64,000 nucleotides of DNA from an uncultured Clostridia bacterium (GCA_945919375.1 CAMEJD010000005.1:19304-83303); one strand, 5' to 3'; positions 7,937 through 64,000 are shown, counted from the stretch's first letter. A program made the numbers and translations. The notes: generated by a model not told the origin, from the letters alone.

Positions 7937-7969
7937 TTTTTTCTCCATTTTTCCATTCCGTTAAGTATT

Positions 7970-28798: not shown

Positions 28799-29383
28799 TT
28801 ACTTGTTTTCCAATGACAAATAGTTTGCCGGGTCAACTTTTTGATTATCTTTGTAAAGTTCAAAGTGTAAGTGATTCCCTGCTTTTGATTCATTTGCACT
28901 GCTTTGTGATATTGTTCCAATTTTTGTACCTTTTGTTACTTTATCAGTTGCCTGCACACATACATTTTCGGCAAGAGAGCAGTATTTACTAACAAACCCG
29001 TTGCTATGCTTTATTGTAATACATGTGCCATCTTCGTAATTTGTTTCAACCTTTGCAATCACACCATCAAGCACTGCAAACACATCAAGATTGTCTTGAC
29101 TTGTTGAGATTAAGTCAACACCTTTGTGACTTTCCCATTGTTTTAGTGTTTCATTGTACATAAGTTCTGTGTCACTATACCATTTTAAAACACTTGGCGA
29201 AGAAATTGGTAATCCAAAAACGACAGGCTGTGTGTCTGTTGGGACATTTGCTTCTTGACTTGGCTTTTTGGCTGATGTAAACACAACGCTTAATGTTATG
29301 CCTAAAATTAAAACAAAAGCAAGCGCATAATACCCATATCTTTTTACAATGCTAGTAAATTTTCCTTTTTCGTTATTTTCCAT
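28799..29383 (-). CDS. Membrane-anchored M23 (LytM) peptidase-domain protein. It is SpoIIQ-like by position next to spoIIID.
   Basis: HKGVD (HxxxD) and HLHFE (HxH) M23 metal ligands are present. It has one N-terminal TM helix (YYALAFVLILGITLSVVF). The likely start is the ATG at 29383 (MENNEKG..), preceded by GGAGG. I recall spoIIQ-spoIIID adjacency in clostridia. Confidence 0.7.
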   Translation of the reverse strand: MENNEKGKFTSIVKRYGYYALAFVLILGITLSVVFTSAKKPSQEANVPTDTQPVVFGLPISSPSVLKWYSDTELMYNETLKQWESHKGVDLISTSQDNLDVFAVLDGVIAKVETNYEDGTCITIKHSNGFVSKYCSLAENVCVQATDKVTKGTKIGTISQSSANESKAGNHLHFELYKDNQKVDPANYLSLENK

Positions 29384-29460
29384 TTTTACCTCCACAATGG
29401 TTATTGACAAATTTTTTGGTATTATACATAAAAGTTAAAAAATTTTTAGTGTAATAATTT

Positions 29461-31249: not shown

Positions 31250-31349
31250 TTTTACCTCGACAAAAGTTTAGCATACAATAAAATTTATTTATGTAGCGAA
31301 TTTTGATATATTTTTGTTTATTTTGGAAAATTTGAAGCAAACTATCTTT

Positions 31350-32429
31350 ATGAAAAAAACGATTTTAACATTGTGTATATTTATTTTAATCTCTCCATTA
31401 TTTTATGGTTTTTGGGCAGATAATTACACTCAAACAACAACGGTTGAACACCTGTTCACCCATTGTTTAATAGCCTATCCGGAACTTGCATTCAAAAAAG
31501 AAAACCCTATGAGAGAAAACTATAATATTGATTGCATAACAAGTTTTGAGTTTAAAAATATACTTGAAAGTTTATATAAAAACAACTATATTTTGGTGGA
31601 TATAAATGACACATTTAAAAGTGAAAATGGCATAGTTAAAAAAACTGCATTAAAAATACCAAAAGGCAAAAAAGCTTTGGTTTTGTCATTTGATGATGTA
31701 AACTATGACCACAAAAAAATGGGACTTGGAATGGTCGACAAGATTATTCTTGACAAAAACAACAATTTTGCAACACAAACAATAGTGAATGGCAAAACCG
31801 ACATCTCATACGATAGAGAATTTGTTTGTATATTAGAAAATTTTGTAAGAAAACACCCGGATTTTTCACACAATAATGCAAAAGGCACAATTAACCTAAC
31901 AGGATATGATGGAATACTTGGATATCGCACTCAATCAAAAAACACAACAAATAGACAAAGTGAAATTAAAGACGCTAAACAAGTTGTTAAAAGACTTAAA
32001 GAATGTGGGTGGAATTTTGCTTCACATAGTTATGGACACTACCATATGAATAAAATTACAAACAAACAATTTGAAGAAGAACTTTTTTTATGGAAGAATG
32101 AAGTAGAACCACTTGTTGGCAAAACAAAAATATATGTTTATCCTTATGGAGAATGGAGTGTTTATGATGAAAATGGCATAACATACAAGCATAAACTATT
32201 GACAGATTATGGTTTTGAATTGTTTTGCGGTGTAGGAATGAAAACGTTTTATTCATATTTGCCTACAAAATTAAGTCAAAAAGTGCTATTTATGGATAGA
32301 AAATGCGTTGACGGATCAACTCTTAGAAAAGATGATATAAATTTGCATCCATTTTTTAAGCCTAAAAGTATTTACGATTATTTATTTAGACCAAGTTCAT
32401 TTATAAATTCAACAGAAACAATAAGATAA
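31350..32429 (+). CDS. Secreted polysaccharide deacetylase (NodB-homology) family protein.
   Basis: Motifs LVLSFDDVNYD and ASHSYGHYH are present. The start is moved to the ATG at 31350 (MKKTILTLCIFILISPL.. signal). Confidence 0.65.
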   Translation: MKKTILTLCIFILISPLFYGFWADNYTQTTTVEHLFTHCLIAYPELAFKKENPMRENYNIDCITSFEFKNILESLYKNNYILVDINDTFKSENGIVKKTALKIPKGKKALVLSFDDVNYDHKKMGLGMVDKIILDKNNNFATQTIVNGKTDISYDREFVCILENFVRKHPDFSHNNAKGTINLTGYDGILGYRTQSKNTTNRQSEIKDAKQVVKRLKECGWNFASHSYGHYHMNKITNKQFEEELFLWKNEVEPLVGKTKIYVYPYGEWSVYDENGITYKHKLLTDYGFELFCGVGMKTFYSYLPTKLSQKVLFMDRKCVDGSTLRKDDINLHPFFKPKSIYDYLFRPSSFINSTETIR

Positions 32430-47591: not shown

Positions 47592-48293
47592 ATGAAACTA
47601 TCAAATATAATTGGAAAACAAGTGTTTTGTGTTTATGATGCAAATGTTCTTGGGACAATTCACGATGTTGCATTTGATGACAAATATACAAAAATACTTG
47701 GCATATACTTTTTTGACCAAGATGAAAACGAATACTTTTTGAAAAGCAAAAATATTTATGCCATAAGTGATTTTGTTACGATAAAAAATACATCATTACT
47801 ATCTCCCGAGATTATTTTGGACAAACCATTGTCCCCTCTTGGAAAATTGGTTGTAGACACATTGGGAGTTAATTTTGGAAACATTAGTGACATTGAATTT
47901 GACGACAAGTTTAAGGTAACAAATTTTGAAACAAACCAAGGCAAAAAAGTTGACCCAAAAACACTTATATTTATCTCAAATAATTTTGTACTTGGAAATA
48001 ATGTAAAAATTTCATCCTTTAGACCAAAAAAATCTTATACAAACAACAATATACTTAACAATTTGACTGTAACAATGATGAAAGTGCAAGAACCTTTGCA
48101 AGAAACAAAAAAACTTATGCCAACAAAAATAACTGTTAATAGTGATGTTTTGATAGGCAAAAGGCTATCAAAAGACATTATAGGGAAAAACAATGAACTA
48201 ATTTTAAAACAAAATCAAATTTTAACTTCAAAATTAGTACTTCTCGCAAAACAACACGACAAATTAAATGAGTTATTTTATAGTGTGTATTAG
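47592..48293 (+). CDS. PRC-barrel domain protein.
   Basis: The N-terminal pattern IIGKQVFCVYDANVLGTIHDVAFDD..ILGIYF is PRC-barrel-like. GGAGG is the RBS. Confidence 0.55.
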   Translation: MKLSNIIGKQVFCVYDANVLGTIHDVAFDDKYTKILGIYFFDQDENEYFLKSKNIYAISDFVTIKNTSLLSPEIILDKPLSPLGKLVVDTLGVNFGNISDIEFDDKFKVTNFETNQGKKVDPKTLIFISNNFVLGNNVKISSFRPKKSYTNNNILNNLTVTMMKVQEPLQETKKLMPTKITVNSDVLIGKRLSKDIIGKNNELILKQNQILTSKLVLLAKQHDKLNELFYSVY

Positions 48294-48298
48294 TATAT

Positions 48299-48331
48299 AA
48301 AAAAGCAAAGTTGGTTCAACTTTGCTTTTTG
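48299..48331. terminator. Bidirectional intrinsic terminator at the left edge of the T4SS-like block.
   Basis: GCAAAGTTG-gtt-CAACTTTGC is flanked by A6 and T5. Confidence 0.65.
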
Positions 48332-48340
48332 TTATTTATG

Positions 48341-50653
48341 TTATTTTTTTGGACCTGCTGAAAAGACTTTTCCAATCATACCTGCGCCACTGCCTGCATA
48401 ACGTTTTAGTCTTTGTCCATATGTTGGAGCATCTTCATATTGTTTTTGTTGTCTTTTAAACTTATCTTCCGCAGCCACAAGTTCTTGTTTCGCCTGTTCC
48501 CTTTCAGCTTGAGCAGCTTTTTGTTGTTTTAGTGCTTGTTCAGCTAGTTCACCTTCACCCTTGCCTTCTTTCAAAATTTGTGAAACCTTTTTGTCAACTT
48601 CCTTTTGAGCGGCAATTTGTGATTCCTTGATCGCGGAATCATATGATCCATTTACAATGTTATTCCAAGTTTTATCATCTTTTCCTGTTGCATTTTTAAT
48701 TTCAGCTTTTCGTTTTTTTGCAACACCCATCCAATGTTTGTAATCGCCCTTGCTATCTAGTCCACTTTCATCATATTTTTGTTTCATAAAGTCGCTTTTT
48801 GCTTTATTATATGCAGAAACATTAAAGTGTCCACTTTTATCCTTAAAGGTATTTTTATCAACGGTGTTATTCCATTCTTCTTCTGCCTTTAATGCTGAGC
48901 CATCTGCTTCGGCATCTTTCCAGTCTTGTTCGCTTAATGTTCCACCAGAAGACTTGTAATCTTCATAGTGATTATGGATTGATTTGTCGTATTCTTTGTC
49001 AAATTCCTTCTTGTAGGCATCTGTGTTTCTCATCGCACCCGAAACACTACTATTTATTTCATCATCACTTTTTGCTGCCTTTTGTCCAACTTCGCCACTT
49101 TTTTTATTTTCAAATTTGTTTCTAGCACGACGCATCTTGTTGTAGTTATGTGCAGCACCAACACCTGCTGCAATTGGAGATGTCAAAAGTTTTGTTGCAC
49201 CAACACCAACTCTTGCAGCCTTTCCTGCTGTCCCAAGAATTTGGGTTCCTATTCCCATAGCTTCTTTTTGCAAAGATTCCCCTGATGAAAGGATACTTTC
49301 GCCTGAGATGAAACCCGCAATAACGCCATCCAATTTCTTTATTGTAAGTAATCCTGCAACCAAGAAGAATAATTGGAATAGATAATCTGCAACACCAAAA
49401 ATCTTGTTTGCAGTGTTTCCAAAGAATGAGAACGAACTAATAATTGGATAAATTAAATAGAACAAGTTTATTGCAACAATCGTTGAATATGCTCCAGTTA
49501 TTGTTGCAACCAACTTTTTACGGCATGAACTGACTGCTGAACCACCATCGATTGGCCACATAGATGCGGCAAGTGGACTTGCGAGCAATAATCCAAAAAC
49601 CATATAAACTCTTCCAATTACACCAAAGATTAGTCCAAGGAATACTTTTCCCGCAATCAAGATAAATGCGATGGCAACCGGCCAGTTAAAGTACCATAAA
49701 TTATAATAGTAACTAACAAGACCAACATCATATCTATCAAAGTATTCAACAACACCACTATGCTTAAATGCCGAACTATCTTGATATGCAGTGTTAATTT
49801 GTTGTGGGTTCTTTAATTTTGCATTTAGCATAAACATTGTATCAATTGCATTTGCCGCTTTGTCGGCATTGTCATACTTGTTGAATATACCAAAGTTTAT
49901 TGTTGCACCCTCAGCAGTATCTTCTTGCATTAGGGTGTTATAGAACGAACTGTCAAGCCTTGCTTTGTTTGCCGAATACAAACTAAATCTTATTGCGGTG
50001 CCAGACATTGGAGTAAATTTTGAAGATGCTTTTTGCCCCCAAAATATATAGTAGTCATATGAGACAACCTTTGTACCGTCAGAAGTTACACTTGGTTGTA
50101 TGTATTTTAAAACAGAATCATCCAAGGATTCAATACTAACTGTGTTTGGTGCTGTTGCTTGATCCAAACCATACAAAGCAATGTTCCCAATAAACACACC
50201 AAAGTAACACACAACAGGGATTGCAAAGAAGGCAATTATTGCTTTTATCATATTCCAAACAATTCCACCTTTGCCCCAATCTTTTTTACCATCAGCTTTT
50301 TTGTTTGGGTTGTATTCAACTCTTATTATTGCTGTGATGGTTGTTATAACCAAAATAATTGCACTAAGAATTAACATACTAATAAATGCGGTTTTTAAAA
50401 TCTGAAAATCTTCATTCAAGAATATCTTTTGCAAAATTTGCAAAATAAGGTCACCACTTGAACCATCACCAAAATCAACAGGATTTACTGCAACCGTTCC
50501 ACCATAGGAGTATGTATCAAGTCCAATAATTTTTCTAAAAAGCAATTGTGCAAAATCAATTACTTGCAAACATGATGCACACACATAGTACAAACATTGT
50601 GGAATAAAACTAAATAAATCGCTACTGATTACATTATCCAATAACAATTTCAA
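48341..50653 (-). CDS. Polytopic membrane protein, VirB6/TrbL-like by topology and gene order, with a long charged coiled-coil C-terminal tail.
   Basis: 770 aa with at least 6 hydrophobic helices and a large loop around aa 170-320. The K/E/Q-rich tail starts at about aa 520. TTG start at 50653 lies 7 nt after a perfect GGAGG. It directly follows the pilin-like gene and is divergent from the coupling protein gene. No motif-level proof. Confidence 0.4.
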   Translation of the reverse strand: MKLLLDNVISSDLFSFIPQCLYYVCASCLQVIDFAQLLFRKIIGLDTYSYGGTVAVNPVDFGDGSSGDLILQILQKIFLNEDFQILKTAFISMLILSAIILVITTITAIIRVEYNPNKKADGKKDWGKGGIVWNMIKAIIAFFAIPVVCYFGVFIGNIALYGLDQATAPNTVSIESLDDSVLKYIQPSVTSDGTKVVSYDYYIFWGQKASSKFTPMSGTAIRFSLYSANKARLDSSFYNTLMQEDTAEGATINFGIFNKYDNADKAANAIDTMFMLNAKLKNPQQINTAYQDSSAFKHSGVVEYFDRYDVGLVSYYYNLWYFNWPVAIAFILIAGKVFLGLIFGVIGRVYMVFGLLLASPLAASMWPIDGGSAVSSCRKKLVATITGAYSTIVAINLFYLIYPIISSFSFFGNTANKIFGVADYLFQLFFLVAGLLTIKKLDGVIAGFISGESILSSGESLQKEAMGIGTQILGTAGKAARVGVGATKLLTSPIAAGVGAAHNYNKMRRARNKFENKKSGEVGQKAAKSDDEINSSVSGAMRNTDAYKKEFDKEYDKSIHNHYEDYKSSGGTLSEQDWKDAEADGSALKAEEEWNNTVDKNTFKDKSGHFNVSAYNKAKSDFMKQKYDESGLDSKGDYKHWMGVAKKRKAEIKNATGKDDKTWNNIVNGSYDSAIKESQIAAQKEVDKKVSQILKEGKGEGELAEQALKQQKAAQAEREQAKQELVAAEDKFKRQQKQYEDAPTYGQRLKRYAGSGAGMIGKVFSAGPKK

Positions 50654-50787
50654 TGCTATGCCTCCTAATATATATTTTTTTACTATTTGTAATTATTATA
50701 ACAAATAAAATTGAAGTTGTACATAGTTTTCGTTATTTTTTTTATTATAAACAATAAAATTTTGAATGATTAAAACAGATTTAATTC

Positions 50788-50819
50788 AAAAAAAATAAAG
50801 CCCGACAAATGTCGAGCCT
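50788..50819 (-). terminator. Hairpin plus U-tract between the pilin-like and VirB6-like genes, a possible attenuator or partial terminator.
   Basis: The reverse-strand RNA forms GGCUCGAC-auuu-GUCGGGCU (2 G.U pairs) followed by UUAUUUUUUUU. Confidence 0.4.
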
Positions 50820-50850
50820 AAATTTTTATTTAATTGGAAATTATCAACTA

Positions 50851-51216
50851 TTAAGCACCCTCTGTGCCATCGCCAGCTACATCTGGAAGAAGAGATGGGA
50901 TAATTGTGCTTGTAAGCAACTTGAAGAATAAAATGAGTGCAATTGTGATTGCTATACCAATGATAACATTGATAAGTCTTTTCTTTGCTTCTTCACGTTT
51001 TTCTGTTGAATCGGCTCTTGCCATATTTACACCAAGAACAACAGCATAAATTGTACCTGCAGCACCAACAACAATAAGTAATGGCCACAAAACAGAATCA
51101 ACTGCACTTGTGATATTGTTTACCCATTGCCACTTTGGATCTAATTCTTTTGCTAATTGTGCAGACTTCCCAAATCCAAGCATATATGTAGTAAGTTTTG
51201 TTAAAAATAAATTCAT
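50851..51216 (-). CDS. Small two-helix membrane protein, VirB2/TrbC pilin-like.
   Basis: 121 aa. Two TM helices (VLWPLLIVVGAAGTIYAVVLGV; LINVIIGIAITIALILFF) are separated by a short charged loop. GGAGGG is the RBS. Its position next to T4SS genes supports the call. Confidence 0.4.
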   Translation of the reverse strand: MNLFLTKLTTYMLGFGKSAQLAKELDPKWQWVNNITSAVDSVLWPLLIVVGAAGTIYAVVLGVNMARADSTEKREEAKKRLINVIIGIAITIALILFFKLLTSTIIPSLLPDVAGDGTEGA

Positions 51217-51563
51217 AATTCCCTCCTAAATTTAATTATTTATTTGCATTAAATAAAATAATTATTCGCTTTGCAATTTATTTTACGATTTAATAGTAGC
51301 ATATATTTTTGTATTTGCCAAACAATTTTTTAAATTTTTTTCATTTTTTTTATAAATTTTATAAAATGGTTATTTTTAATTACATTGATTTGATAATTTT
51401 TGCATTGACATCTTTCAAAATATTATTTTAGCCCACAATTTTTTATAATTACAAATTTATTATTTCCCCAATTTATACCTTTTATTTATTGTATAAATAT
51501 TTTTGCGAAAATTTTTGCAAATTATAACTAAAGCAAAAAATATAATTGCCGACAATAAATAGT

Positions 51564-51592
51564 TTGACATAGTTATGTTTTTAATATAAAAT
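51564..51592 (+). promoter_or_regulatory. Candidate promoter for the coupling-protein gene: TTGACA-N17-TAAAAT.
   Basis: The -35 is at 51564-51569 and the -10 at 51587-51592. GGAGGG and the ATG at 51618 follow. Confidence 0.4.
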
Positions 51593-51617
51593 ATTATCAA
51601 TATATTTTGGAGGGAAA

Positions 51618-53594
51618 ATGAAGAAGAAATTTAAAAATTCTTTTATTGCACTTGTTTTAATCTATGTTATTGGAGTTGTTATTTCTTTTGTTATTAGTGA
51701 CAGTCCAACATTTCCAGAAGTGCTAACAAGCACAACATCTCTTATTGTTTTGGGTTGTGGGCTTTTGGCAGTTCTTGCCTACCTTGTTTCAACCAACAGA
51801 TTTTATACTGACGATAAAGGTGGCTATACAGGAAAAACTGCAAGTGGTAGTGAAATGAATCAACACTATGAAGCAAGATTCGTTAGCGAAGAAGAATTAC
51901 TTACAAATCCTGTATTTATGCCAACAACTTGGAAGCAACTTCCAAAGGTAAAAAAGACCGGTGTTATGATTAGAAGTTTATACAAAAATGGCGTTATGCA
52001 TATCAATATGTACAACCCTATCCACACTCTTATTATAGGTACAACTGGTTCTGGTAAAACAACATTTGTTCTTGATCCAGCCATAAGAGTTTATGCCCAC
52101 AGTGCCGAAAAACCTTGTATGGTTATCACCGACCCAAAAGGTGAACTTTATAACAATCACTCAATTCAACTCCGTGAAGAAGGTTACAGAATTATTGTTA
52201 TTGATTTAAGAAATCCATATTCTTCAACAAGATGGAATCCTATGGATAATTCATTTATGATGTACCAAAGAGCACACCACCTTGAAGATGAAGTGAAAGT
52301 TTACAAAGGAGCAAAGCCAAAAGATGTTGGTGGGTATAAAGAAATTGCCAAAGAATATACCGACATATGGTATGGTTTTGAAAAGATTGCATACCCAACA
52401 AAAGAAGCCCTTATGCAAGACCTTGAAGCAAAAAAACAATTTTTGATAAATGAAGCAGAAAACGAACTTCGTGAAATTGCCAGCACGATTGTTACAGTTG
52501 AAAGCAAAACCGACCAAGGTTGGGAACGTGGCGCACAAGACTTTTTGTATGGACTTATGCTTGCGATGCTTGAAGATAGCCTTAATCCAGAACTTGGTAT
52601 GACCAGAGAAAAATTTAATTTTTATAACCTTGTAAAAATTGCAACTTATCGTGATGTTGACGGCGACGATATGATGAAAACATTAAAACAATATACATCT
52701 GGTAGAGATGTTTTGAGTAAAGTTCCTGCCCTAACAAGCACAGTTGTAAACAACGCTCCAAACACCACAAGAAGTTACCTAGGTGTTTTGCAACCAAAAA
52801 TTGCAGTATTCCAAGATATGGGTATTTGTTACTGCACAAGTGCAACCGATGTTTCATTCGCCGATTTTACCGACAAACCTACCGTTCTGTTTATCAAAGT
52901 TCCTGATGAAAAAGAAAGCAGACACTCAATTGCAACAATGTGTATTTCACAAATGTACAAAACATTGATTAACACAGCAAGTGCAAGACCAAACCTTCAA
53001 CTCCAAAGACCTGTATACTTCTTGCTTGATGAATTTGCAAACTTGCCTAAAATTGAAAAAATGGACACAATAATTACAGTCGCCCGCTCAAGAAGAATTT
53101 TCTTTGAACTTGCAATTCAATCTTATAGTCAACTTGACAACAAATATACAAAAGAAGTTGCCGACACAATTAAAGGCAACTGCAATATCCAAATATTTAT
53201 TGGGACAGAAGACCAAAAAACAAGAGAAGAATTTTCAAAAATTTGTGGTGAAGTTACTCTTAAAACCCAAAACACATCAATAAACCAAAGTGAAAAGAAT
53301 GATAGAGATTCAAGCAAAACAATTTCAACCCAAATCGTCACCCGTCCACTTATTGAACCATATGAACTTGGACAATTACCTTTTGATGTAAACATTGTAA
53401 AAATTTATGGTCAACCCGCAATAAAGACACAAATGACACAATACTTTAGGAACCCAGTTCTTGACCAAAGAAAAGCAAGCGAAGAATATGCACCAAGTAG
53501 ACACCTTGATGAAATGGCAATATTCTATGACATAAAAGCAAGAAATGCCAAAGTATTTAAAAAATCAAATGTATTTGACGATTTTGATTTTTAA
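51618..53594 (+). CDS. Type IV secretion coupling protein (VirD4/TraG/TraD family ATPase).
   Basis: Two N-terminal TM helices are present. Motifs are IIGTTGSGKTTFVLDPAI (Walker A), VITDPKGELY and YFLLDEFANLPKIE (Walker B), the classic T4CP signatures. Confidence 0.9.
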   Translation: MKKKFKNSFIALVLIYVIGVVISFVISDSPTFPEVLTSTTSLIVLGCGLLAVLAYLVSTNRFYTDDKGGYTGKTASGSEMNQHYEARFVSEEELLTNPVFMPTTWKQLPKVKKTGVMIRSLYKNGVMHINMYNPIHTLIIGTTGSGKTTFVLDPAIRVYAHSAEKPCMVITDPKGELYNNHSIQLREEGYRIIVIDLRNPYSSTRWNPMDNSFMMYQRAHHLEDEVKVYKGAKPKDVGGYKEIAKEYTDIWYGFEKIAYPTKEALMQDLEAKKQFLINEAENELREIASTIVTVESKTDQGWERGAQDFLYGLMLAMLEDSLNPELGMTREKFNFYNLVKIATYRDVDGDDMMKTLKQYTSGRDVLSKVPALTSTVVNNAPNTTRSYLGVLQPKIAVFQDMGICYCTSATDVSFADFTDKPTVLFIKVPDEKESRHSIATMCISQMYKTLINTASARPNLQLQRPVYFLLDEFANLPKIEKMDTIITVARSRRIFFELAIQSYSQLDNKYTKEVADTIKGNCNIQIFIGTEDQKTREEFSKICGEVTLKTQNTSINQSEKNDRDSSKTISTQIVTRPLIEPYELGQLPFDVNIVKIYGQPAIKTQMTQYFRNPVLDQRKASEEYAPSRHLDEMAIFYDIKARNAKVFKKSNVFDDFDF

Positions 53595-53613
53595 AAAAAT
53601 AATTAAATTAAAA

Positions 53614-53647
53614 AAATATTTCCAAAAATTATTTGGAAATATTTTTT
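53614..53647 (+). terminator. Intrinsic terminator after the coupling-protein gene.
   Basis: A 13-bp stem AAATATTTCCAAA-aatta-TTTGGAAATATTT is followed by a T-run. Confidence 0.55.
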
Positions 53648-53732
53648 ATTTGTTTTTTAGCATTCCCCCATATTATTTTTGATATTATATTAAATATATT
53701 TAATATTTATTAAATAAATATGCACAATATAT

Positions 53733-53762
53733 TTGGAAATAAATGACAAAATGTGCTAATAT
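53733..53762 (+). promoter_or_regulatory. Candidate promoter for the 2485-aa gene: TTGGAA-N18-(TGc)TAATAT.
   Basis: The -35 is at 53733-53738 and the extended -10 TGcTAATAT ends at 53762. GGGGTG and the ATG at 53787 follow. Confidence 0.35.
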
Positions 53763-53786
53763 ATTGTTGAATAATGGGGTGACTCT

Positions 53787-56700
53787 ATGAAAATAATCAA
53801 TAAAAAATATTTAACATTTATTTTTCTTGCAATTACATTATGTTTTTGCAGTATATTTTGCCTTAATTTTAGTGGCAGTGTTTATGCCGAAGATTTCTCG
53901 GATGTATTCACAGTAAAACAGCATACATCATTAACTGACCCAGGAACAACCATTCAAGATGGGGCAGTTGCCTACATAACACCAAGCGACTCGATTACTG
54001 CGGTAATGGAATCAACTTCAACAAAAGAAATTGATTTTATAAATCCGTACATAACCTATAATGGTCAAAGCATTAACTCGGATGTAATAAGCAAGTATTC
54101 AATCGATTATTCTCATGATGGAATGAAAAAACTTACATTAACTCTTACATTTAACGATGCAGACAAAACTGCGCCATATGGGAAATATGATATAAGAATA
54201 AATTACATTGTAAGTGAAAATGGTATTTCATCAAATAAAACATTAACTTATGTTTTCTATGCTCTAAAAAATAGTGATTACTATAGCGGGACAACAGTTA
54301 ATGCAATTTACGATAATTGCCATAAGGTAGATAAATCCCTTGTAATGCCATATGATAACATTTATCAATTTAACTATGACTCAAAAGTTTTGCCAAGACT
54401 TGCAGTTAATTTTAAAAATATCAATCTTACAATAACAAAAACTTTTCAAAAAAACACAAGCACTCAAAGAATTTGGTTTGACGGAACAAATATTCAAACA
54501 GATAACAATATTGTTTACTTTTACACTAGTGAAGAAAATGATTTCCTTTATGTAACATTCAATGACCTAGGAACATACACAATTTCTTACAACTTTATAT
54601 ACACCTACAATAACACTGTTGAAAATATTGAAAAATCGGCACAAAATACAAATACAAAGTATGTTGACCTTTTGGAAATGTTTGGATATCAACTTTATTA
54701 TTCAGATATAGAAACAAGTTTGTTAAAAGAATTTAAAAATATTGATAGCAATGGTGCGATTTTAGAAGAAGTAACAGACATCTCTTATCTATTCTCAAAA
54801 TTTAATGCAAGTTTAAACAATACACAAGATAATACAATTCAAAACATTCTTACAAAATTAAACAATAATGAAATTGCTATTCAAGAAACGAATCAATCAC
54901 CTGTTCAATTTAAGTATAATGTTGAAATATTCAACAAAGACAATTCAAACGTTGTTGACACACAAAGTGCATACTATATGCTTGAATTAGACAAAGAAAC
55001 AAACACCTATTCAATTATAAACGATTCAAGGGTTGAATACGATAATTCTCCGCTAACAAAAGCAGGAATATATCTTGTTAATGTAGTTTACAAATATACC
55101 CCAACAATTATCGGTGCAGATGAAGCATGCGCACCTTCTGACATATCAAATGATTCAACCGAAAAGTTAAGAAGTCAATGGTTCGTTTTTGAAATTACAA
55201 AATCAACAACAAAAATTTCAATTGAAACAAATGAAAATGAAAATAAGCAAGCATTAAACGATGGCTCATTTACAAACAAAGATGTTCTAATCAAAAAAGA
55301 CGAACAATCAAAATCTATATTCAATGCAAAAACAAAACTTGTTGTTTCAATTCAAGAAAATTTTGCAGGAGACTATGTTGACACCGAAATAACTTCCAGT
55401 GAAGGTCAAGTATTTTCAAGCAATGGTAACTATATTGTAACAATGTATTTTGGCAAAAATCTTAACAGAAGTTACAGTTCAACCTTTACAATTGACAAAG
55501 AAGAAATTGATAATATTCAAATCTTTTCTGTTGACCTTCAAGGCAACAACACAACATACACAAGAAACAAACAAATTGAATTTATGACAAATCAAAGTGT
55601 TGTTGTTTCTTGGAATAACAAAGCAAGTGGCAGTGTTATTTCAGCACAATACAAGTACTTCCCTATCACTCTTGATTCATCATATTCATTTAGTGATGAT
55701 ATATGCAAAAAATATTACAACAAAGATTATTCAATACTTTCTAACTATGAAATAAATTTGGAAGATTCAGAATATACTCCTGTTGAGTATTCAAACAGTC
55801 AAGTATACACACAAAGCATACCATCAAGCGCAGTGCTTTCTCAAAATGGTTTATATGTATTCAAACTATTGGATAGTGCAGGAAATGAAAAATATTTTGC
55901 TTTTGTTATTGACAAAACACCTTCAATCATTCTTCAACAAATAAACGGGACTTTTGTTGACCCAACCGAATTGAATATTGTTTCAAGTGATGTTGATATT
56001 ATGTTTGGTCAATACAAAGTTATAAAACTCAAAAATCTAAAGCAATCAGTACCATTTGAAAACAATGACAGTTGGCTTGATAAAATATTAAACACAACCG
56101 AAATTTATAACAGTCACTTCAAACTTTTGCAAATAAATACTTTTGATGATGTTTACATCAGTATAAAAAATAATGCAAAAGTTCTTATGTGTGAACAAGA
56201 AAGCACAAAATTTATTGACAACAATATTTTAAATAAATTCAGTATTCATATTCCTTTTGAAGATGGAAAAGATATAACCTTTTACACCCAAGACGAATTA
56301 TGTAACAATGGATATTTTACAGAAGAAGAATATTTGAAATCTCATTCAAATATATTCAGAGTAAAACTATCTTCAGACGCAAGTCAAACAAACCTTATTT
56401 ATAAAGCAAAGGACCAAAAGAACACAACATTATATTTAAGTTCATTCAATCATATTGACAATGAAACATCAACAAAAAATCAATATTACATTCCAACAAC
56501 AGCAAACACTCTTGCTAGTAGCAACGAAATCTTAACATTAGAGTTTTTACCAGTTCCCGAATCTGGTGTTTTGGAAGTTGAAAGTGTTGAATACGAATTT
56601 ACTCCTTTCTCACCTTCAAAGAAAATTGATGAACAAAACAGTTTGAATTACACATATTCTTATGTTTTTGACAATGCAAACACCGTTAGCGGAATTGTAT

Positions 56701-59700
56701 ATTCAAAACTTGACCCAACAAAAACTTTGGCAAAGCAAAATGGTGACAAATATAGTTGGGAAATAAATCTTGAATATAACAATATAACCGGTAGTAAGCA
56801 GACAAAAAGCGGTAAATATGTAATAACAAGAAGATATGCTCAAACATCACAACTTAATGATAAACTTGCAGAAAAACAAGACTATGTTACACGCACATTC
56901 ACATTTATTATAGATAGAAACGGAATAATTACAAATCCAGTTGTAACTGATTCTAGTTCACAAAATATGTATAGTTATGTTGGTGAAGCAATAAAGATTC
57001 AAGTTCTTGAAAACGAAAATGACAAAATGTTCTTTAACGATATATACCTTGCAAAGATTGCAAACGACAAGAACTCACCTATTCTTCAAACAAACAAACT
57101 CCCTGTTTTTGTATATATTCCTGTATACACATACGGATATGCCTACACAAATGGCGGAACATTTAATCTTGAAGATTCAATTCTATATTATGACACAAAC
57201 GATAAGTTAAACAGTTTGATTTCATCATATGCACTATCTGCAGAGATAAAATATTCATATGAACAATCATCACTAGAACAATCAACCGAAATATATAAAG
57301 GGTACAACGATAACAGTGACGGATATCTAAAGTTTAATGGAATTTCTTCTACTTCAGGAAGAGCATTCACAAAAGTTGGATATTACAAAGTTACAATAAA
57401 ACAAGGCTTGCCACAATATGGACAAAATGAATTTAGTTACATATTCAGCATTGAATCCGGTTCTCCTGACTTTAAAGTTACATCAATGGACGGAACGGAA
57501 CTTTCAAAAGATTCATTAGAAAACTACTACACAAACAACGAGAATATTAAACTAGAGTGGGAAGACCCAGTAAACAAATTTAGAGCAAAAATAAACAAAA
57601 ATGAAATATACTACTCAATCAATGGTAGCACACAAATAAAAGTTAATAGCAATCAAATTAACACCTCGGAAAATATAAACACTGTAAATATCAATCTTAA
57701 TGATATTGGTGCATATAAAGATGGAAACACAATTCAATTCTTTATGCAATTTGAAGGTGACCAAAAAGATTATCAAGAAGGCTCATTCAAAAAAACAAGC
57801 ACACTTATCATTGATACAAAAGCACCTGACAAAAACTTAAACAACCTTATTTCATTAAGTGGCATTGATTCTTCATTATTAAGAACTGTTGAAACAAAAT
57901 ATAACACATCAACAGTATCTGGTTTGTATAAGTATTATGCCTTCCCTGTTGACAAATCTCAACTTGAAAATGTTTTTGACTTTACAAGTTATGATAATGG
58001 TGACACATATGGCATTTATTACAGAGTTTTTGAAAACAATAATGGCGAAAATACAAAATACAACAACATTTACACACAAGAAACTCTTCCAAGTGATTTT
58101 GAAAACTCAAAAATTGGTTTCACTTCAATAAATGATATAGATAATGACCTTTTGACAAATGACAGTTTGATTAACAAATATATCGAAATTGTTGAAGTTG
58201 ACCTTGCCGGTAACATAACAATTTACACAATTTACTTAACAAACCTAACGGCTTCATCAAATGTTACGGCAATAACATACACTCAAAATAATAGAGATGA
58301 GAAACAAAATATATCATACAACGACCTAAGTTCAAACATAACAATCAATGCAAAAAGTGCTTTTGCCCTTGATTCAGTGAACATTGCAAACTTTGCATGG
58401 AGCAATATAAAAATCGGGGATCAAACTTTCCTAAAAACACCTTACTCAAACAATGTATATTATGACCTTGCAAAATACAATCCAATAGATATTTCAGCAA
58501 GTGAAATTACTCTTAAAAAATTGTCAACACTTTCTGCAAGCAATCAAAAACAAAGTATAACATTAGGATTTGTCCCATTGTATGACACAATAACATTAAC
58601 AGTATCCGTACTTAACACTTCCCTAAATGTGTTCCACACTTCGGAAACAAATACCTATGCATCACAAGAAGGTGTGTTAATCAAAATACCAAGCACATCA
58701 TCAGTTCAAGATGCAACAATATATGCAATTGAAGTTAGAATACTTGAGTATATTAGAGAAGATAACACTTACAAGCAAAATCAATTATATGAAAAAAGAG
58801 ATGAAACATATTTTGCAAGTGCCGGACAAACACTTGTAAGTCCAGCAGGAATTACAACAACTTATGTAAATTACCTTGGCAACACATATATGAAAATTAT
58901 TGCATCCGAACCAAAAGCAAATATATTCTACAAATACATTATCTTGGACAACTTTGGCGACACAACCGAATTTACAAACATTTATGGAAACGAAAAAGTT
59001 GACAAGGAACTTAACAGTTCGGTTGATTTGGTTGAAAGATATGAAGATGGTGTAAAATACTACTACTCAACAAAAGATATCGTATTCAAATACAACAGTG
59101 CAAAAGATAGAATTATTCTTAATGTCGGCGCATCATATGACACAAGGTCATTTGACTTGTCGGTTGAAGGAAAGATTGCCGAATTTAATAATTCCGGCTA
59201 TGGTCAAATTATTTTACCTCAAAAAGGTTCAAATTCAAATATTTACACAATAATATTAAAAGCGCCATCAAAAGACCTTGCAAACAGTGTGTTTGGCTCC
59301 GAAATTAAATTTACAATTAAGAAATTTATTGCAGTTGAAGAAATTTCTCAAGGCAGAAGTTATGACACATTAAACCTTATTATTTATAACAAAGTTCCTG
59401 AATTTACACTTCTTGGAACATCAAACCAAAATCTTAATGAGTTATTTAACAAAGGTTCAATGTACGGCAATGCAATTAAGATTACATTCAAACAAACAAA
59501 TGCAAAAATCTTATGTGATGTATTCTTACTTCACAGCGATGATAGTTTGGAAGCAATTTCTTCCGGCAAAATCGTTAGTGATCCAAACACATATAAACTT
59601 GTTGTAAAATATACAAACATATTTACAAATCAAATTTATGATGAATATTTTGAATTTACAATTTCAAATAACGATTTTGAATATTACAAAGTTGTTTACA

Positions 59701-61244
59701 CAATTGATGGAATAACTTACTATGCTCAAAAAACAGGAAACAAATATTCATATCAAGACGGGAACACAACTTATGAAATAACAAATCACTACATTATAAA
59801 TACAAAAGATTACGATATAATCTACAACACAGAACAAGGTTATATTGAAGATGGTGAACCAACTCTTTATGTAACAAACAACATTGAAACATATATTCAC
59901 ACAATCAAATCAAATAATGAATCAAGCAAACTTGAAAGAAAGATTGCAGTAAGCATTATTCCACGATCTAGTGATATATTAAGGAACTTCTCATATTACG
60001 AAAATGAAGGGACTCCTGCACAACTTACAGGAACTGAAAAGAGATTTGTTGTAACAAAAGAAGAAAATAATATTTCCGGAAAAAGAATTTCTTGGCAATC
60101 ATATTATGGAATTGCTGAAAACCTGGTTAATGTTGAAATAACATATGGCGATAGTCAAACTCCATACACTCCTACCCTTACAACCGAAAACGATATAACA
60201 AGTTTGGTTTTGTCAAATTCTGGAATATATCAATTGGTATTCAAAGATATGGCAGGAAATGTACATTTGTTTGAAACAAAAGCATTCTACACAATCAACT
60301 ACCTAAAAACAGTTATTTTTACAATAAATGACCAATCTCCGATAAATAATGCAGTATATAATGAAAATGTTGTTATAAAGATACCTTCATACACAACAAG
60401 ATATTATGACCAAACTGCTCAACCAAGATTACACGCATTAAAAAACGGTGAAGAATATTCTCCAGAAAAAGACATATACGAAAAAACATTCATTTTCGCC
60501 GACCCAGGCTTATACAAGATTTGGTTCTCTGCCGGAGTTACAGACTCAGGAAAGACAATGGAGATTAACGAACAACCAATATACTTCTTAATCATCAATA
60601 AGAATGAATCAAGATATGCCTTTGACTATAGCGAATATGGAAATTACTATGTTAAACAAATTCTTAAAAACGATGTTGATGTAACAGAAAAATTAACAAA
60701 TGAAAATATGGGTACAGTTATTTACAAAAACAACAAAGCATACTTAAAGAACTTTAACTTCTCTGTTGTTGATGCTCTTACCGGAAAGGGTAAATACACA
60801 GTTACAATCGCAACAGGTAATGAATTTAATCAAGAATTTACATTCAGTTTCTGGTTGAACAATAAAACCCCTTCAATCCAAGTTTCAATTGGCGAAAATG
60901 AAGAAACAACCGACACAATCAAAGTATTATTCAACACCGCAAACCTTATTGAAGACGTTGGCGATTGCGTGCTAAAAATTACAGGACAAAAAGACCTTAA
61001 ACTTAATAGTGCAGCACTTGCAGATAATAAAATAAAGAGTACATACGAAATTGAATTAACCACAAAAGGTACATACTTTATTCAATTATATAGCGAAAGT
61101 GGAAAACTTTTATACTCATACAGAGTTGTTAAAAATGAACCACTTAATGCAGTATCAATCATTGTAATTGTTGTTGCTTGCATTGTTGTTGTTGGATTAA
61201 CTCTTACATTTGTTCTATTAAGAAAGAAAATGAAGATAAGATAA
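53787..61244 (+). CDS. Giant (2485 aa) beta-rich surface protein with a Sec signal peptide and a C-terminal TM anchor.
   Basis: N-terminus is MKIINKKYLTFIFLAITLCFCSIFCLNFSGSVYAED. C-terminus is ..AVSIIVIVVACIVVVGLTLTFVLLRKKMKIR (TM plus basic tail, no LPXTG). Recurrent Ig-domain-boundary-like D(K/T)(T/K)(P/A)P motifs occur (VIDKTPSI, IDTKAPDK, NNKTPSI). It has no GLUG motifs. Confidence 0.9.
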   Translation: MKIINKKYLTFIFLAITLCFCSIFCLNFSGSVYAEDFSDVFTVKQHTSLTDPGTTIQDGAVAYITPSDSITAVMESTSTKEIDFINPYITYNGQSINSDVISKYSIDYSHDGMKKLTLTLTFNDADKTAPYGKYDIRINYIVSENGISSNKTLTYVFYALKNSDYYSGTTVNAIYDNCHKVDKSLVMPYDNIYQFNYDSKVLPRLAVNFKNINLTITKTFQKNTSTQRIWFDGTNIQTDNNIVYFYTSEENDFLYVTFNDLGTYTISYNFIYTYNNTVENIEKSAQNTNTKYVDLLEMFGYQLYYSDIETSLLKEFKNIDSNGAILEEVTDISYLFSKFNASLNNTQDNTIQNILTKLNNNEIAIQETNQSPVQFKYNVEIFNKDNSNVVDTQSAYYMLELDKETNTYSIINDSRVEYDNSPLTKAGIYLVNVVYKYTPTIIGADEACAPSDISNDSTEKLRSQWFVFEITKSTTKISIETNENENKQALNDGSFTNKDVLIKKDEQSKSIFNAKTKLVVSIQENFAGDYVDTEITSSEGQVFSSNGNYIVTMYFGKNLNRSYSSTFTIDKEEIDNIQIFSVDLQGNNTTYTRNKQIEFMTNQSVVVSWNNKASGSVISAQYKYFPITLDSSYSFSDDICKKYYNKDYSILSNYEINLEDSEYTPVEYSNSQVYTQSIPSSAVLSQNGLYVFKLLDSAGNEKYFAFVIDKTPSIILQQINGTFVDPTELNIVSSDVDIMFGQYKVIKLKNLKQSVPFENNDSWLDKILNTTEIYNSHFKLLQINTFDDVYISIKNNAKVLMCEQESTKFIDNNILNKFSIHIPFEDGKDITFYTQDELCNNGYFTEEEYLKSHSNIFRVKLSSDASQTNLIYKAKDQKNTTLYLSSFNHIDNETSTKNQYYIPTTANTLASSNEILTLEFLPVPESGVLEVESVEYEFTPFSPSKKIDEQNSLNYTYSYVFDNANTVSGIVYSKLDPTKTLAKQNGDKYSWEINLEYNNITGSKQTKSGKYVITRRYAQTSQLNDKLAEKQDYVTRTFTFIIDRNGIITNPVVTDSSSQNMYSYVGEAIKIQVLENENDKMFFNDIYLAKIANDKNSPILQTNKLPVFVYIPVYTYGYAYTNGGTFNLEDSILYYDTNDKLNSLISSYALSAEIKYSYEQSSLEQSTEIYKGYNDNSDGYLKFNGISSTSGRAFTKVGYYKVTIKQGLPQYGQNEFSYIFSIESGSPDFKVTSMDGTELSKDSLENYYTNNENIKLEWEDPVNKFRAKINKNEIYYSINGSTQIKVNSNQINTSENINTVNINLNDIGAYKDGNTIQFFMQFEGDQKDYQEGSFKKTSTLIIDTKAPDKNLNNLISLSGIDSSLLRTVETKYNTSTVSGLYKYYAFPVDKSQLENVFDFTSYDNGDTYGIYYRVFENNNGENTKYNNIYTQETLPSDFENSKIGFTSINDIDNDLLTNDSLINKYIEIVEVDLAGNITIYTIYLTNLTASSNVTAITYTQNNRDEKQNISYNDLSSNITINAKSAFALDSVNIANFAWSNIKIGDQTFLKTPYSNNVYYDLAKYNPIDISASEITLKKLSTLSASNQKQSITLGFVPLYDTITLTVSVLNTSLNVFHTSETNTYASQEGVLIKIPSTSSVQDATIYAIEVRILEYIREDNTYKQNQLYEKRDETYFASAGQTLVSPAGITTTYVNYLGNTYMKIIASEPKANIFYKYIILDNFGDTTEFTNIYGNEKVDKELNSSVDLVERYEDGVKYYYSTKDIVFKYNSAKDRIILNVGASYDTRSFDLSVEGKIAEFNNSGYGQIILPQKGSNSNIYTIILKAPSKDLANSVFGSEIKFTIKKFIAVEEISQGRSYDTLNLIIYNKVPEFTLLGTSNQNLNELFNKGSMYGNAIKITFKQTNAKILCDVFLLHSDDSLEAISSGKIVSDPNTYKLVVKYTNIFTNQIYDEYFEFTISNNDFEYYKVVYTIDGITYYAQKTGNKYSYQDGNTTYEITNHYIINTKDYDIIYNTEQGYIEDGEPTLYVTNNIETYIHTIKSNNESSKLERKIAVSIIPRSSDILRNFSYYENEGTPAQLTGTEKRFVVTKEENNISGKRISWQSYYGIAENLVNVEITYGDSQTPYTPTLTTENDITSLVLSNSGIYQLVFKDMAGNVHLFETKAFYTINYLKTVIFTINDQSPINNAVYNENVVIKIPSYTTRYYDQTAQPRLHALKNGEEYSPEKDIYEKTFIFADPGLYKIWFSAGVTDSGKTMEINEQPIYFLIINKNESRYAFDYSEYGNYYVKQILKNDVDVTEKLTNENMGTVIYKNNKAYLKNFNFSVVDALTGKGKYTVTIATGNEFNQEFTFSFWLNNKTPSIQVSIGENEETTDTIKVLFNTANLIEDVGDCVLKITGQKDLKLNSAALADNKIKSTYEIELTTKGTYFIQLYSESGKLLYSYRVVKNEPLNAVSIIVIVVACIVVVGLTLTFVLLRKKMKIR

Positions 61245-61250
61245 CAAGCA

Positions 61251-61282
61251 AAAAAAGATGTTCAATTGAACATCTTTTTTTT
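61251..61282. terminator. Bidirectional intrinsic terminator between the giant gene and trxB, at the right edge of the T4SS-like block.
   Basis: Perfect palindrome AAGATGTTCAATTGAACATCTT is flanked by A6 and T8. Confidence 0.7.
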
Positions 61283-63597: not shown

Positions 63598-63724
63598 ATT
63601 TTAGAAAATACATTAGTTTTTATTTGATATATAGTTATTAAGCAGATTTTTAAACTCACCTTTTTCTATGCTCCTTGTAATGACTGCAAATGTTTTGTAT
63701 TTAAAAACAAAATGCCTGAAAAAT

Positions 63725-63764
63725 AAAAACGCAAAATTAAACGACATATTCAAGGCTCGCATAA
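63725..63764. repeat. Direct repeat, copy 1 (40 nt).
   Basis: aaaaacgcaaaattaaacgacatattcaaggctcgcataa. It matches copy 2 at 37/40 positions, and the last 23 nt are identical. Confidence 0.7.
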
Positions 63765-63960
63765 TAAATGCCGGCAGGAGTTTGGTTACCCAAATGACTG
63801 TGTACAAATTGCCAAGCGAAAACAAAGAAAATTATTTAATAAAAAACATAAAACTAATCGCAAGAACAAGGTTTACTTTTTAAGGTTATAATTTCCCCCA
63901 AAGTTGGGCTTTGATGTCGACAGTCGAAATAACTATATACATGTAAGTGTTTGTCAAACA

Positions 63961-64000
63961 AAAAACACAAAATTAGGCGACATATTCAAGGCTCGCATAA
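63961..64000. repeat. Direct repeat, copy 2 (40 nt, ends at the window edge).
   Basis: aaaaacacaaaattaggcgacatattcaaggctcgcataa, 236 nt downstream of copy 1. Confidence 0.7.

Follow-up and report, generated by a model that had tools for sequence, protein, structure and literature searches.

A vertically inherited VirD4 locus encoding pilin-like, VirB6-like and giant surface proteins in uncultured gut Clostridia

A 64,000-nucleotide stretch of DNA from an uncultured Clostridia bacterium (GCA_945919375.1 CAMEJD010000005.1:19304-83303; hereafter the window) carries, between two terminator-like hairpins (48300-61281), four intact long open reading frames (ORFs) and no others, encoding a VirD4-type coupling ATPase, a VirB2-type pilin-like protein, a polytopic membrane protein of VirB6-like topology and a 2485-aa surface protein. 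A first-pass annotation, made from the sequence alone, had described this block as an orphan, stripped-down type IV secretion system (T4SS)-like module coupled to a giant surface protein, and its four long, intact ORFs are recovered here at the same positions. Our best reading is that the block derives from a monoderm (MPF_FATA-like) conjugation apparatus, has become fixed in the chromosome and is passed on vertically, and that uncultured gut Clostridia of low GC, which together form a large clade (NCBI label Christensenellales), keep it for a host function. That it is a domesticated and functional T4SS-derived module is very likely; towards the full mechanistic statement, a domesticated T4SS-derived apparatus for contact and translocation, we lean only slightly.

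Judged from its sequence, the 658-aa product of 51618-53594 (+) is a bona fide VirD4-type coupling protein. It matches the Pfam families T4SS-DNA_transf (1e-54, 186.5 bits), TraG-D_C (2e-35, 122.1 bits) and TrwB_AAD_bind (5e-31, 108.3 bits) against gathering scores of 20-22, as well as the NCBIfam family conju_CD1115 ("VirD4-like conjugal transfer protein, CD1115 family"; 282.2 bits, cutoff 250). Its N-terminus holds two transmembrane helices (residues 4-32 and 34-61), and among 19 orthologues the Walker A motif GTTGSGKT is invariant (19/19) and Walker B, VYFLLDEF in the window, nearly so (VYF[LI]LDEF in 19/19); the VirD4/TraG identity initially assigned to it is upheld by scores above curated thresholds and by these intact motifs. 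The CedB model matches it at the P-loop only (E=0.0014). Relatives number 2634 at E<=1e-60, the 120 best-scoring of which are 543-676 aa long and share at least 57% identity with the window protein, whereas the best plasmid relatives stay below 30% identity.

The 121-aa protein encoded divergently from VirD4 (50851-51216, -) scores 35.8 bits with the Pfam family T4SS_pilin (PF18895; gathering score 26.6), in support of its earlier description as a two-helix, pilin-like and T4SS-related protein. Its match to TrbC/VirB2 is weak (E=0.008, 16.8 bits against a gathering score of 27.9), and with the NCBIfam family Mbov_0395/MMCAP2_0565 (pilin-like conjugal transfer) it reaches 37.0 bits (E=2.1e-9), short of the cutoff of 40; by these scores it is a homologue, not an equivalog, of the pilin-like protein of Mollicutes integrative and conjugative elements (ICEs). 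A leader is followed by two hydrophobic helices (~35-66 and 77-111) with a charged loop between them; across 19 loci, some of them with a VirD4 of just 62% identity, the first helix is highly conserved and the stretch from the loop into helix 2 (GVNMARADSTEKREEAKK-LINV) hardly varies. The region upstream of the gene (51217-51331, -), with a putative promoter and 5' leader, is more conserved than most of the surrounding coding sequence: an extended -10 element (TGCTACTAT) and a TTGCA-N23-TGCAA inverted repeat recur in nearly all of nine loci with strongly diverged coding sequences (the window, L006, L007, L009, L014, L015, L019, L022 and L025). This region may be an operator or leader element. 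A structured 5' leader was considered and rejected, the nine loci showing only a 5-bp inverted repeat without covariation.

The 770-aa polytopic membrane protein (48341-50653, -; hereafter VirB6-like) matches the NCBIfam models MMCAP2_0566 (conjugal transfer; 2.8e-22, 79.4 bits, under the cutoff of 90) and ICE_Mbov_0396_TM (3e-14, 53.2 bits, under the cutoff of 70). Of 23 diverse members of the family, every one matches the two models (best values 1.6e-36 and 1.1e-26), and two also match a pLS20 conjugation transmembrane family, so that at the sequence level its homology to the transmembrane proteins of Mollicutes ICEs is clear. A relationship of the 121-aa and 770-aa proteins to T4SS or ICE components, which the first-pass annotation had marked for checking, is found for both in Pfam and NCBIfam matches. 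The consecutive locus tags Mbov_0395/0396 and MMCAP2_0565/0566 suggest an adjacent gene pair, and therefore that pilin-like and transmembrane genes are neighbours in Mollicutes ICEs, an arrangement that the block shares. M. mycoides capri GM12 carries MMCAP2_0566 as part of an ICE (PMC3053259), and the polytopic CDS16 of Mycoplasma ICEs is viewed as a VirB6-like component in a 2025 review (PMC12857230).

Predictions place five to six transmembrane helices (11-43, 84-114, 128-167, 324-364, 372-406 and 417-449) in a core of residues 1-450 of the VirB6-like protein, followed by a charged helical C-terminal tail of ~270 aa (500-770) that is probably cytoplasmic by the positive-inside rule. An AlphaFold2 (AF2) model (pLDDT 72.5) has six membrane helices, a folded extracytoplasmic loop of ~150 aa (168-323) and the helical tail. 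The predicted topology is thus of VirB6 type, with at least five transmembrane segments and a large central extracytoplasmic loop. The family comprises 967 cluster representatives at 50% identity (E<=1e-30) and has no Pfam model.

The giant protein (53787-61244, +) has a Sec signal peptide (residues 3-32), a C-terminal transmembrane segment (2447-2482) and a short basic tail (LRKKMKIR). It has no match in Pfam, NCBIfam or among PDB sequences, no LPxTG sorting signal at its C-terminus, no polymer-adhesin domain in Pfam or NCBIfam, and no internal repeats at BLAST level. Modelled with AF2 (pLDDT 78.6), residues 1-1150 form a string of beta-sandwich domains resembling immunoglobulin (Ig) and fibronectin type III (FN3) folds, for which Foldseek returned multi-Ig/FN3 ectodomains as best matches (4e-9), S-layer proteins and cadherins being weaker (4e-5 and beyond). 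Its 29 homologues (2,470-2,940 aa) are collinear over the full length at identities down to ~20%, none of them with a Pfam domain, and the family is most conserved over the membrane-proximal 400 residues and least at the N-terminal tip, a pattern to be expected if a surface fibre meets conserved partners at its base and a variable target at its tip. Export of the giant by the T4SS-like system, as first suggested, is unlikely because it has a classical Sec signal peptide, together with a stop-transfer anchor.

The four genes are linked to one another in related loci. Profile hidden Markov model scans of all fetched loci, 26 of them from a metagenome scan, gave at least seven gene orders over 46 non-redundant VirD4 loci (arrowheads, strand; B6, VirB6-like; pil, pilin-like; D4, VirD4): <B6 <pil >D4 >giant; <giant <pil >D4 >B6 >B6; <B6 <giant <pil >D4; >D4 >giant; >pil >D4; <B6 <B6 <pil >D4; and <D4 ... 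>B6 x3. The pilin gene is present in the VirD4 locus in 39 of the 46, nearly always adjacent, and where at least 5 kb is available on both sides of VirD4 (n=18) all four genes are found in 12 loci, only the pilin gene beside VirD4 in four and only the giant gene in two. That this linkage survives so many rearrangements speaks well for a joint function of the four products; the tie between the giant gene and the T4SS-like genes, proposed at the outset, likewise outlasts several of them. At L088 (VirD4 68% identical) the VirD4-giant pair adjoins gidA, gidB and dnaA, next to the replication origin, a placement that echoes the origin-proximal T4SS genes reported for Patescibacteria, while at L089 and L090 Flg_new/Flg_new_2 surface proteins (747 and 917 aa) flank pilin-VirD4, the giant being absent or on the other side.

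One scan for the VirB6-like family gave 113 genome-representative matches, all in uncultured Clostridia, from human, ruminant, rabbit, chicken and mouse guts. Its contexts, with neighbours identified partly from Pfam tables and partly by reading of the sequence, include uvrC - VirB6-like - yqeY - metallophosphatase ... spo0A; tatD - ksgA - HD - x - three tandem VirB6-like paralogues; and gerA operon - glmS - secA - VirB6-like. Two or three tandem VirB6-like paralogues (740-960 aa; e.g. ~840, 745 and 790 aa) occur at 24 loci (among them L027, L029, L032, L034, L035, L038 and L039), often with the tatD-ksgA-HD genes to one side and an rRNA operon to the other; VirD4 and pilin genes are lacking within 10 kb.

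Comparison between genomes, earlier proposed as a means of telling a fixed from a patchy block, found the same locus and flanks across species. Near-identical or identical copies are present in several gut metagenome assemblies, and the nearest genome representative, a metagenome-assembled genome labelled Christensenella sp. UBA5893 (L009), shares 88% nucleotide identity over 20.6 kb. The same four-gene order beside the PRC-barrel/Band7 genes is found in L009, L006, L007 and L015, with VirB6-like identities of 90, 63, 41 and 32%, respectively. Synonymous divergence (dS) of the four genes from related species is 0.6-1.6, similar to that of the housekeeping neighbours save for a lower pilin value (against L009, ~0.6 for block genes as for neighbours, and 0.2 for the short pilin gene). 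Pairwise Nei-Gojobori ratios of nonsynonymous to synonymous substitution (dN/dS), computed for 13 genes of the region between the window and L009 and between the window and L006, were respectively 0.014 and 0.020 for VirD4, 0.018 and 0.036 for the pilin, 0.063 and 0.107 for the giant and 0.080 and 0.220 for the VirB6-like gene, as compared with 0.037 and 0.045 for DnaI and 0.048 and 0.048 for Pth; VirD4 and the pilin rank as the two most constrained of the 13 genes against L009, and first and third against L006. Estimating dN/dS, also an early suggestion, hence gives purifying selection for all four genes (0.014-0.22), and the block is a vertically inherited locus under such selection.

Nothing in the window marks the block as mobile. 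As first noted, VirB4, relaxase, integrase and recombinase are lacking (Pfam scan of ORFs of at least 120 aa, and tblastn), and direct repeats bracketing the block are found at chance level only; the 64 kb contain no tRNA and no Rfam match, and G+C is ~30% all along, with no distinct composition for the block. It therefore has neither the relaxase and integrase nor the att repeats and tRNA target of an ICE, and it is syntenic across species. Recent acquisition from a known plasmid type was rejected, no plasmid relative having been found for the VirB6-like protein and VirD4 being less than 30% identical to plasmid copies.

VirB4 was searched for in the window and in the 10-kb flanks of ~115 related loci. 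With pBMB64 proteins as queries, neither the window nor 1.5 Mb of related loci yielded a VirB4, VirB3/PrgI, relaxase or TrbL_4, and the VirB4 of a distant relative, L112, used as a tblastn query at E<=0.1, had no relative in the window or the other loci (1.83 Mb in total). L112 itself (10188 nt, 33% G+C, VirD4 42% identical) has the order >VirD4 <pilin <661-aa lipoprotein <VirB6-like (772 aa) <VirB3/VirB4-like. Its pilin scores 39.7 bits with PF18895, and its VirB3/VirB4-like gene, which is fusion-like and cut at the contig end, encodes N-terminal transmembrane helices and a VirB4-type domain (DUF87, AAA_10, TraG P-loop), the protein being 26% identical to pBMB64 VirB4 (E=3e-18). The acidic 661-aa lipoprotein occupies the place that the giant fibre has in other loci. 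In L112, and not in the window, a VirB6-like gene lies directly upstream of VirB3/VirB4, which shows the canonical monoderm order VirB6 - VirB3 - VirB4 with the 770-aa family in the VirB6 position; because a VirB3/VirB4-like gene adjoins the VirB6-like gene there, the lineage probably descends from a fuller T4SS ancestor. Within the 10-kb flanks searched the evidence leans towards loss of VirB4, and towards a system that works without a linked copy, because the window's clade never links VirB4 to the four mutually linked genes. The label "orphan, stripped-down" fits the 64-kb window and the 10-kb flanks of the related loci, which have no VirB4 or relaxase, but not L112, which is fuller; for the genome as a whole it is no more than a possibility.

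The alternative that survives best is a complete but scattered chromosomal T4SS, in which VirB4, VirB3 and perhaps VirB8- and VirB1-like proteins are encoded elsewhere in the genome, a layout known from Rickettsiales and many Patescibacteria, and the machine works in the canonical monoderm manner, a plausible reading if short of a probable one. It gains from the VirB3/VirB4-like gene placed directly after the VirB6-like gene in L112, from the splitting of the four genes between loci in some lineages, from an M23 peptidase in the window, and from Patescibacteria, in which coupling protein genes mostly lie far from virB4 (bioRxiv 10.1101/2025.01.22.634366). Yet tblastn (E<=0.1, L112 and pBMB64 queries) detects no VirB4 within 10 kb of the four genes in 1.83 Mb, and in Patescibacteria the VirB6 and pilin genes are mostly near virB4 (same preprint), as they never are in the window's clade. 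We advance with still more reserve a VirB4-independent machine driven by the coupling protein, for which the clade would have cut the conjugation apparatus down to VirD4, a VirB2-type pilin, a VirB6-like channel and a co-evolving fibre of ~2,500 aa, and would retain them almost as core genes, perhaps to exchange chromosomal DNA or to pass molecules to and from a partner organism.

Several points weigh against our interpretation of the block as a self-sufficient domesticated apparatus. VirB4 may just be encoded elsewhere in this genome. It is considered the ATPase that every T4SS has, and the systems studied need it to make pili, so that a VirB4-less machine would be unprecedented; several phrasings of a VirB4-less T4SS found no match in a 2025 FEMS review (PMC12857230). 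At 62 of 91 VirB6-like loci (one to three copies) no VirD4, pilin or giant gene lies within 10 kb, and the four proteins need not always act together. Dispersal of the system is also seen, at loci where the genes are split, the one beside gidA, gidB and dnaA (L088) among them. Should the substrate be DNA, neither a relaxase nor an oriT is apparent for it, and both substrate and direction of transport are guesses.

The naming of the 770-aa protein is a further point on that side. It matches no Pfam family, 22 members of its family have no TrbL-type Pfam match, hhalign against the single TrbL_4 compared (that of pBMB64) gave a probability of 0.3 and no match, and there is no PDB sequence match. 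Foldseek with the full-length AF2 model, long tail included, found nothing at E<=0.001 and placed R388 TrwI (7o3v_G) at rank 10 (E=1.7, probability 0.23) with a target-normalised TM-score of 0.32, which is not significant. The protein is thus not filed under TrbL/VirB6, there being no match in Pfam, PDB sequences or the one hhalign comparison and no significant one in Foldseek. The first-pass proposal, VirB6-like by topology and order, keeps its topology and gains homology to Mollicutes ICE proteins, while membership of the TrbL/VirB6 superfamily finds no Pfam or hhalign match.

A domesticated apparatus for contact and translocation could work as follows. The Ig-like fibre of ~2,500 residues, exported by Sec and anchored in the membrane, would reach past the wall (~100 nm by our estimate, if it has ~20-25 domains of ~4 nm each) and bind a partner cell or surface. 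An abundantly expressed VirB2-type pilin and the VirB6-like protein would form a membrane conduit or a short pilus-like stalk, and a VirD4 hexamer might dock on this platform, possibly through the cytoplasmic helical tail of the VirB6-like protein, and use ATP to feed a macromolecular substrate through the conduit. DNA, the default substrate of VirD4-type motors, would be the most likely cargo, and mycoplasmas are known to transfer chromosomal DNA by ICE machinery (PMC12857230); the lack of a visible relaxase here keeps protein as an alternative. A speculative lead only is that Christensenellaceae in culture form aggregates with methanogens.

It is improbable that the system serves adhesion or surface structure only, with pilin, VirB6-like protein and fibre forming an appendage, VirD4 acting in its assembly and nothing being transferred. 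The fibre is indeed the largest part, with its conserved end proximal to the membrane and its variable end distal, and the pilin gene has its own strong predicted promoter and terminator, as for a major structural subunit; but VirD4 is the most constrained protein here, yet in known systems it is a substrate receptor and translocase that is dispensable for pilus assembly, and the giant needs just Sec for its export. A further point in its favour is that VirD4 proteins reportedly suppress the accumulation of conjugative pili (2026 mBio paper, PMC13463995).

The least probable alternative by far, a decaying or defective ICE that has lost VirB4, relaxase and integrase, would account for every identifiable domain being of conjugation type and for the other T4SS genes being absent from the window, but, as the first-pass annotation had already argued from the intact ORFs, it is rejected because of synteny (locus and flanks unchanged in species at dS up to ~1.6), dN/dS of 0.014-0.22, a conserved pilin, a giant gene that is intact (its apparent split in the sister strain L001 is a scaffold run of Ns) like the three other ORFs, and the absence of close plasmid relatives, to which are added the more than 2,600 VirD4 relatives at E<=1e-60 (the 120 best near-constant in length and at least 57% identical), normal composition and the lack of att repeats, tRNA and integrase.

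The domesticated module so favoured is laid out as divergent transcripts. Both of its ends are closed by bidirectional terminator-like hairpins, originally annotated as terminators: one at 48300-48330 (14-bp stem AAAAAGCAAAGTTG/CAACTTTGCTTTTT between runs of A and T) on the PRC-barrel side, and another at 61250-61281 (14-bp stem, A7 and T7 runs) shared with the convergent trxB. Both leftward genes, pilin and VirB6-like, have a promoter-like site and an AGGAGG-type ribosome-binding site of their own; the VirB6-like gene, with a TTG start preceded by AGGAGG, has a putative promoter at 50695-50723 (-; TGTACA-17-TATAAT, extended -10 TG), identified by consensus scan only. A terminator-like hairpin directly 3' of the pilin gene (50798-50819, -; 9-bp stem with five GC pairs, T8 tail) is predicted to set pilin transcription apart from the VirB6-like gene. 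To the right, a putative promoter at 51564-51592 (+; TTGACA-17-TAAAAT, 11 of 12 matches, kept in L009 and L006) precedes VirD4 and probably also drives the giant gene; the hairpin scan found no terminator in the 192-nt gap between the two.

Pfam annotation confirms that the flanks are housekeeping genes, including PRC-barrel and trxB. On the left lie PRC-barrel, SPFH/Band7, DUF1858, FeoA, DnaB_2/DnaI, M1 peptidase, Pth and Mfd genes, and on the right thioredoxin reductase (trxB) and a rubrerythrin-like protein. The PRC-barrel gene (47592-48293, +) still adjoins the VirB6-like gene in L019 and L023, despite a changed orientation and a VirD4 identity of only 62%; this could point to a fifth associated gene, or to no more than retained synteny. 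The initial statement that the window has no cell-wall hydrolase has to be corrected: a gene of the M23 peptidase family is present at 28799-29410 (-), 19 kb from the block and directly upstream of the gene for a 6,608-aa giant, and a polysaccharide deacetylase gene lies near it (31314-32429, +), both products being cell-wall-modifying enzymes. The minus strand of 1-27796 is taken up by giant ORFs of 6,608 aa (7970-27796; no Pfam domain) and at least 2,653 aa (2-7960, running off the left end; a marginal GLUG motif), and the three giant proteins occupy ~55% of the window. A relationship between the 2,485-aa and 6,608-aa giants was rejected, BLASTP giving no match. At the right window edge, outside the block, a 45-nt direct repeat (63720-63764 / 63956-64000) has 89% identity between copies 236 nt apart.

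Gram-positive T4SSs have been treated almost wholly as plasmid or ICE cargo, and the module would represent a further case of domestication, the second and independent of the first, found in animal- and human-gut Clostridia of a large clade and under essential-like constraint, VirD4 and the pilin-like protein evolving more slowly than adjoining replication and translation genes. It gives a functional context to two families without Pfam models, the VirB6-like proteins (~1,000 clusters at 50% identity) and the ~2,500-aa Ig-like fibres, and may be a device by which organisms seen only in metagenomes make cell-cell contact or exchange genes. A literature search found no paper on this module in Christensenellales. 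Only a true absence of VirB4 would bring it near to being categorically new, and the indispensability of VirB4 to every T4SS-type machine would then become directly testable; were that VirB4-less reading true, this would be the first T4SS-type system without VirB4, and Patescibacteria would no longer be the only monoderms with a VirB2-type pilin system. Gram-positive T4SSs are otherwise said not to encode conjugative pili, Patescibacteria being the sole monoderm exception (PMC12857230).

Among known systems, those closest to the block include its presumed ancestors, the MPF_FATA modules of Bacillota and Mollicutes (Mycoplasma ICEs with CDS5/VirD4 and the VirB6-like CDS16; pBMB64/pAW63-type plasmids). 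Shared with them are a VirD4 of the CD1115 type and a small two-helix protein followed by a polytopic one, which in the block are homologous to the Mollicutes ICE pair, and the order VirD4 - small protein - VirB6 - VirB3 - VirB4 recurs in pBMB64 and L112. In contrast to these mobile modules, the block is fixed among housekeeping genes and vertically inherited, without VirB4, VirB3, relaxase, integrase or DDE recombinase; its VirD4 is less than 30% identical to plasmid copies, and its VirB6-like protein has no plasmid relative and is 2-3 times longer, with a 270-aa helical tail. The T4SSs of Patescibacteria, or candidate phyla radiation (CPR), such as that of Southlakia epibionticum (PMC12102498, PMC12857230), are likewise monoderm, chromosomal and domesticated, with PF18895 VirB2-like pilins, VirB6 and VirD4, no relaxase, and multiplication of pilin or VirB6 genes in some lineages. 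However, CPR systems are built around VirB4 with VirB3, VirB8 and VirB1, none of which is linked in the block, whose host is a Clostridia lineage with the sporulation gene spo0A near the module in related loci, and in which a co-inherited Ig-like fibre of ~2,500 aa is the likely contact device, replacing pilin arrays or type IV pili; a CPR survey reports no PrgB-type adhesins (bioRxiv 10.1101/2025.01.22.634366).

Other parallels come from more distant machines. The archaeal Ced/Ted systems for DNA import are also minimal, domesticated, chromosomal and relaxase-less, and combine a VirB2-like and a VirB6-like protein with a single ATPase, but the Ced ATPase, CedB, is VirB4/HerA-like whereas that of the block is VirD4, and Ced has no giant fibre. 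The rvh T4SS of Rickettsiales is host-owned and scattered, with tandem, enlarged VirB6 paralogues bearing long C-terminal extensions (PMC7648143); this multiplication parallels the two to three tandem VirB6-like copies (740-960 aa) at 24 related loci, although Rickettsiales are diderm and their system has a full VirB3-B11 set, including VirB4, and proteobacterial ancestry. Finally, PrgB of pCF10 is likewise a large surface protein encoded in a transfer gene cluster and presumed to make cell-cell contact (PMC12857230), from which the giant of the block differs in having no LPxTG signal, polymer-adhesin domain or Pfam match, and in being anchored by a transmembrane segment, about twice as long and Ig/FN3-like.

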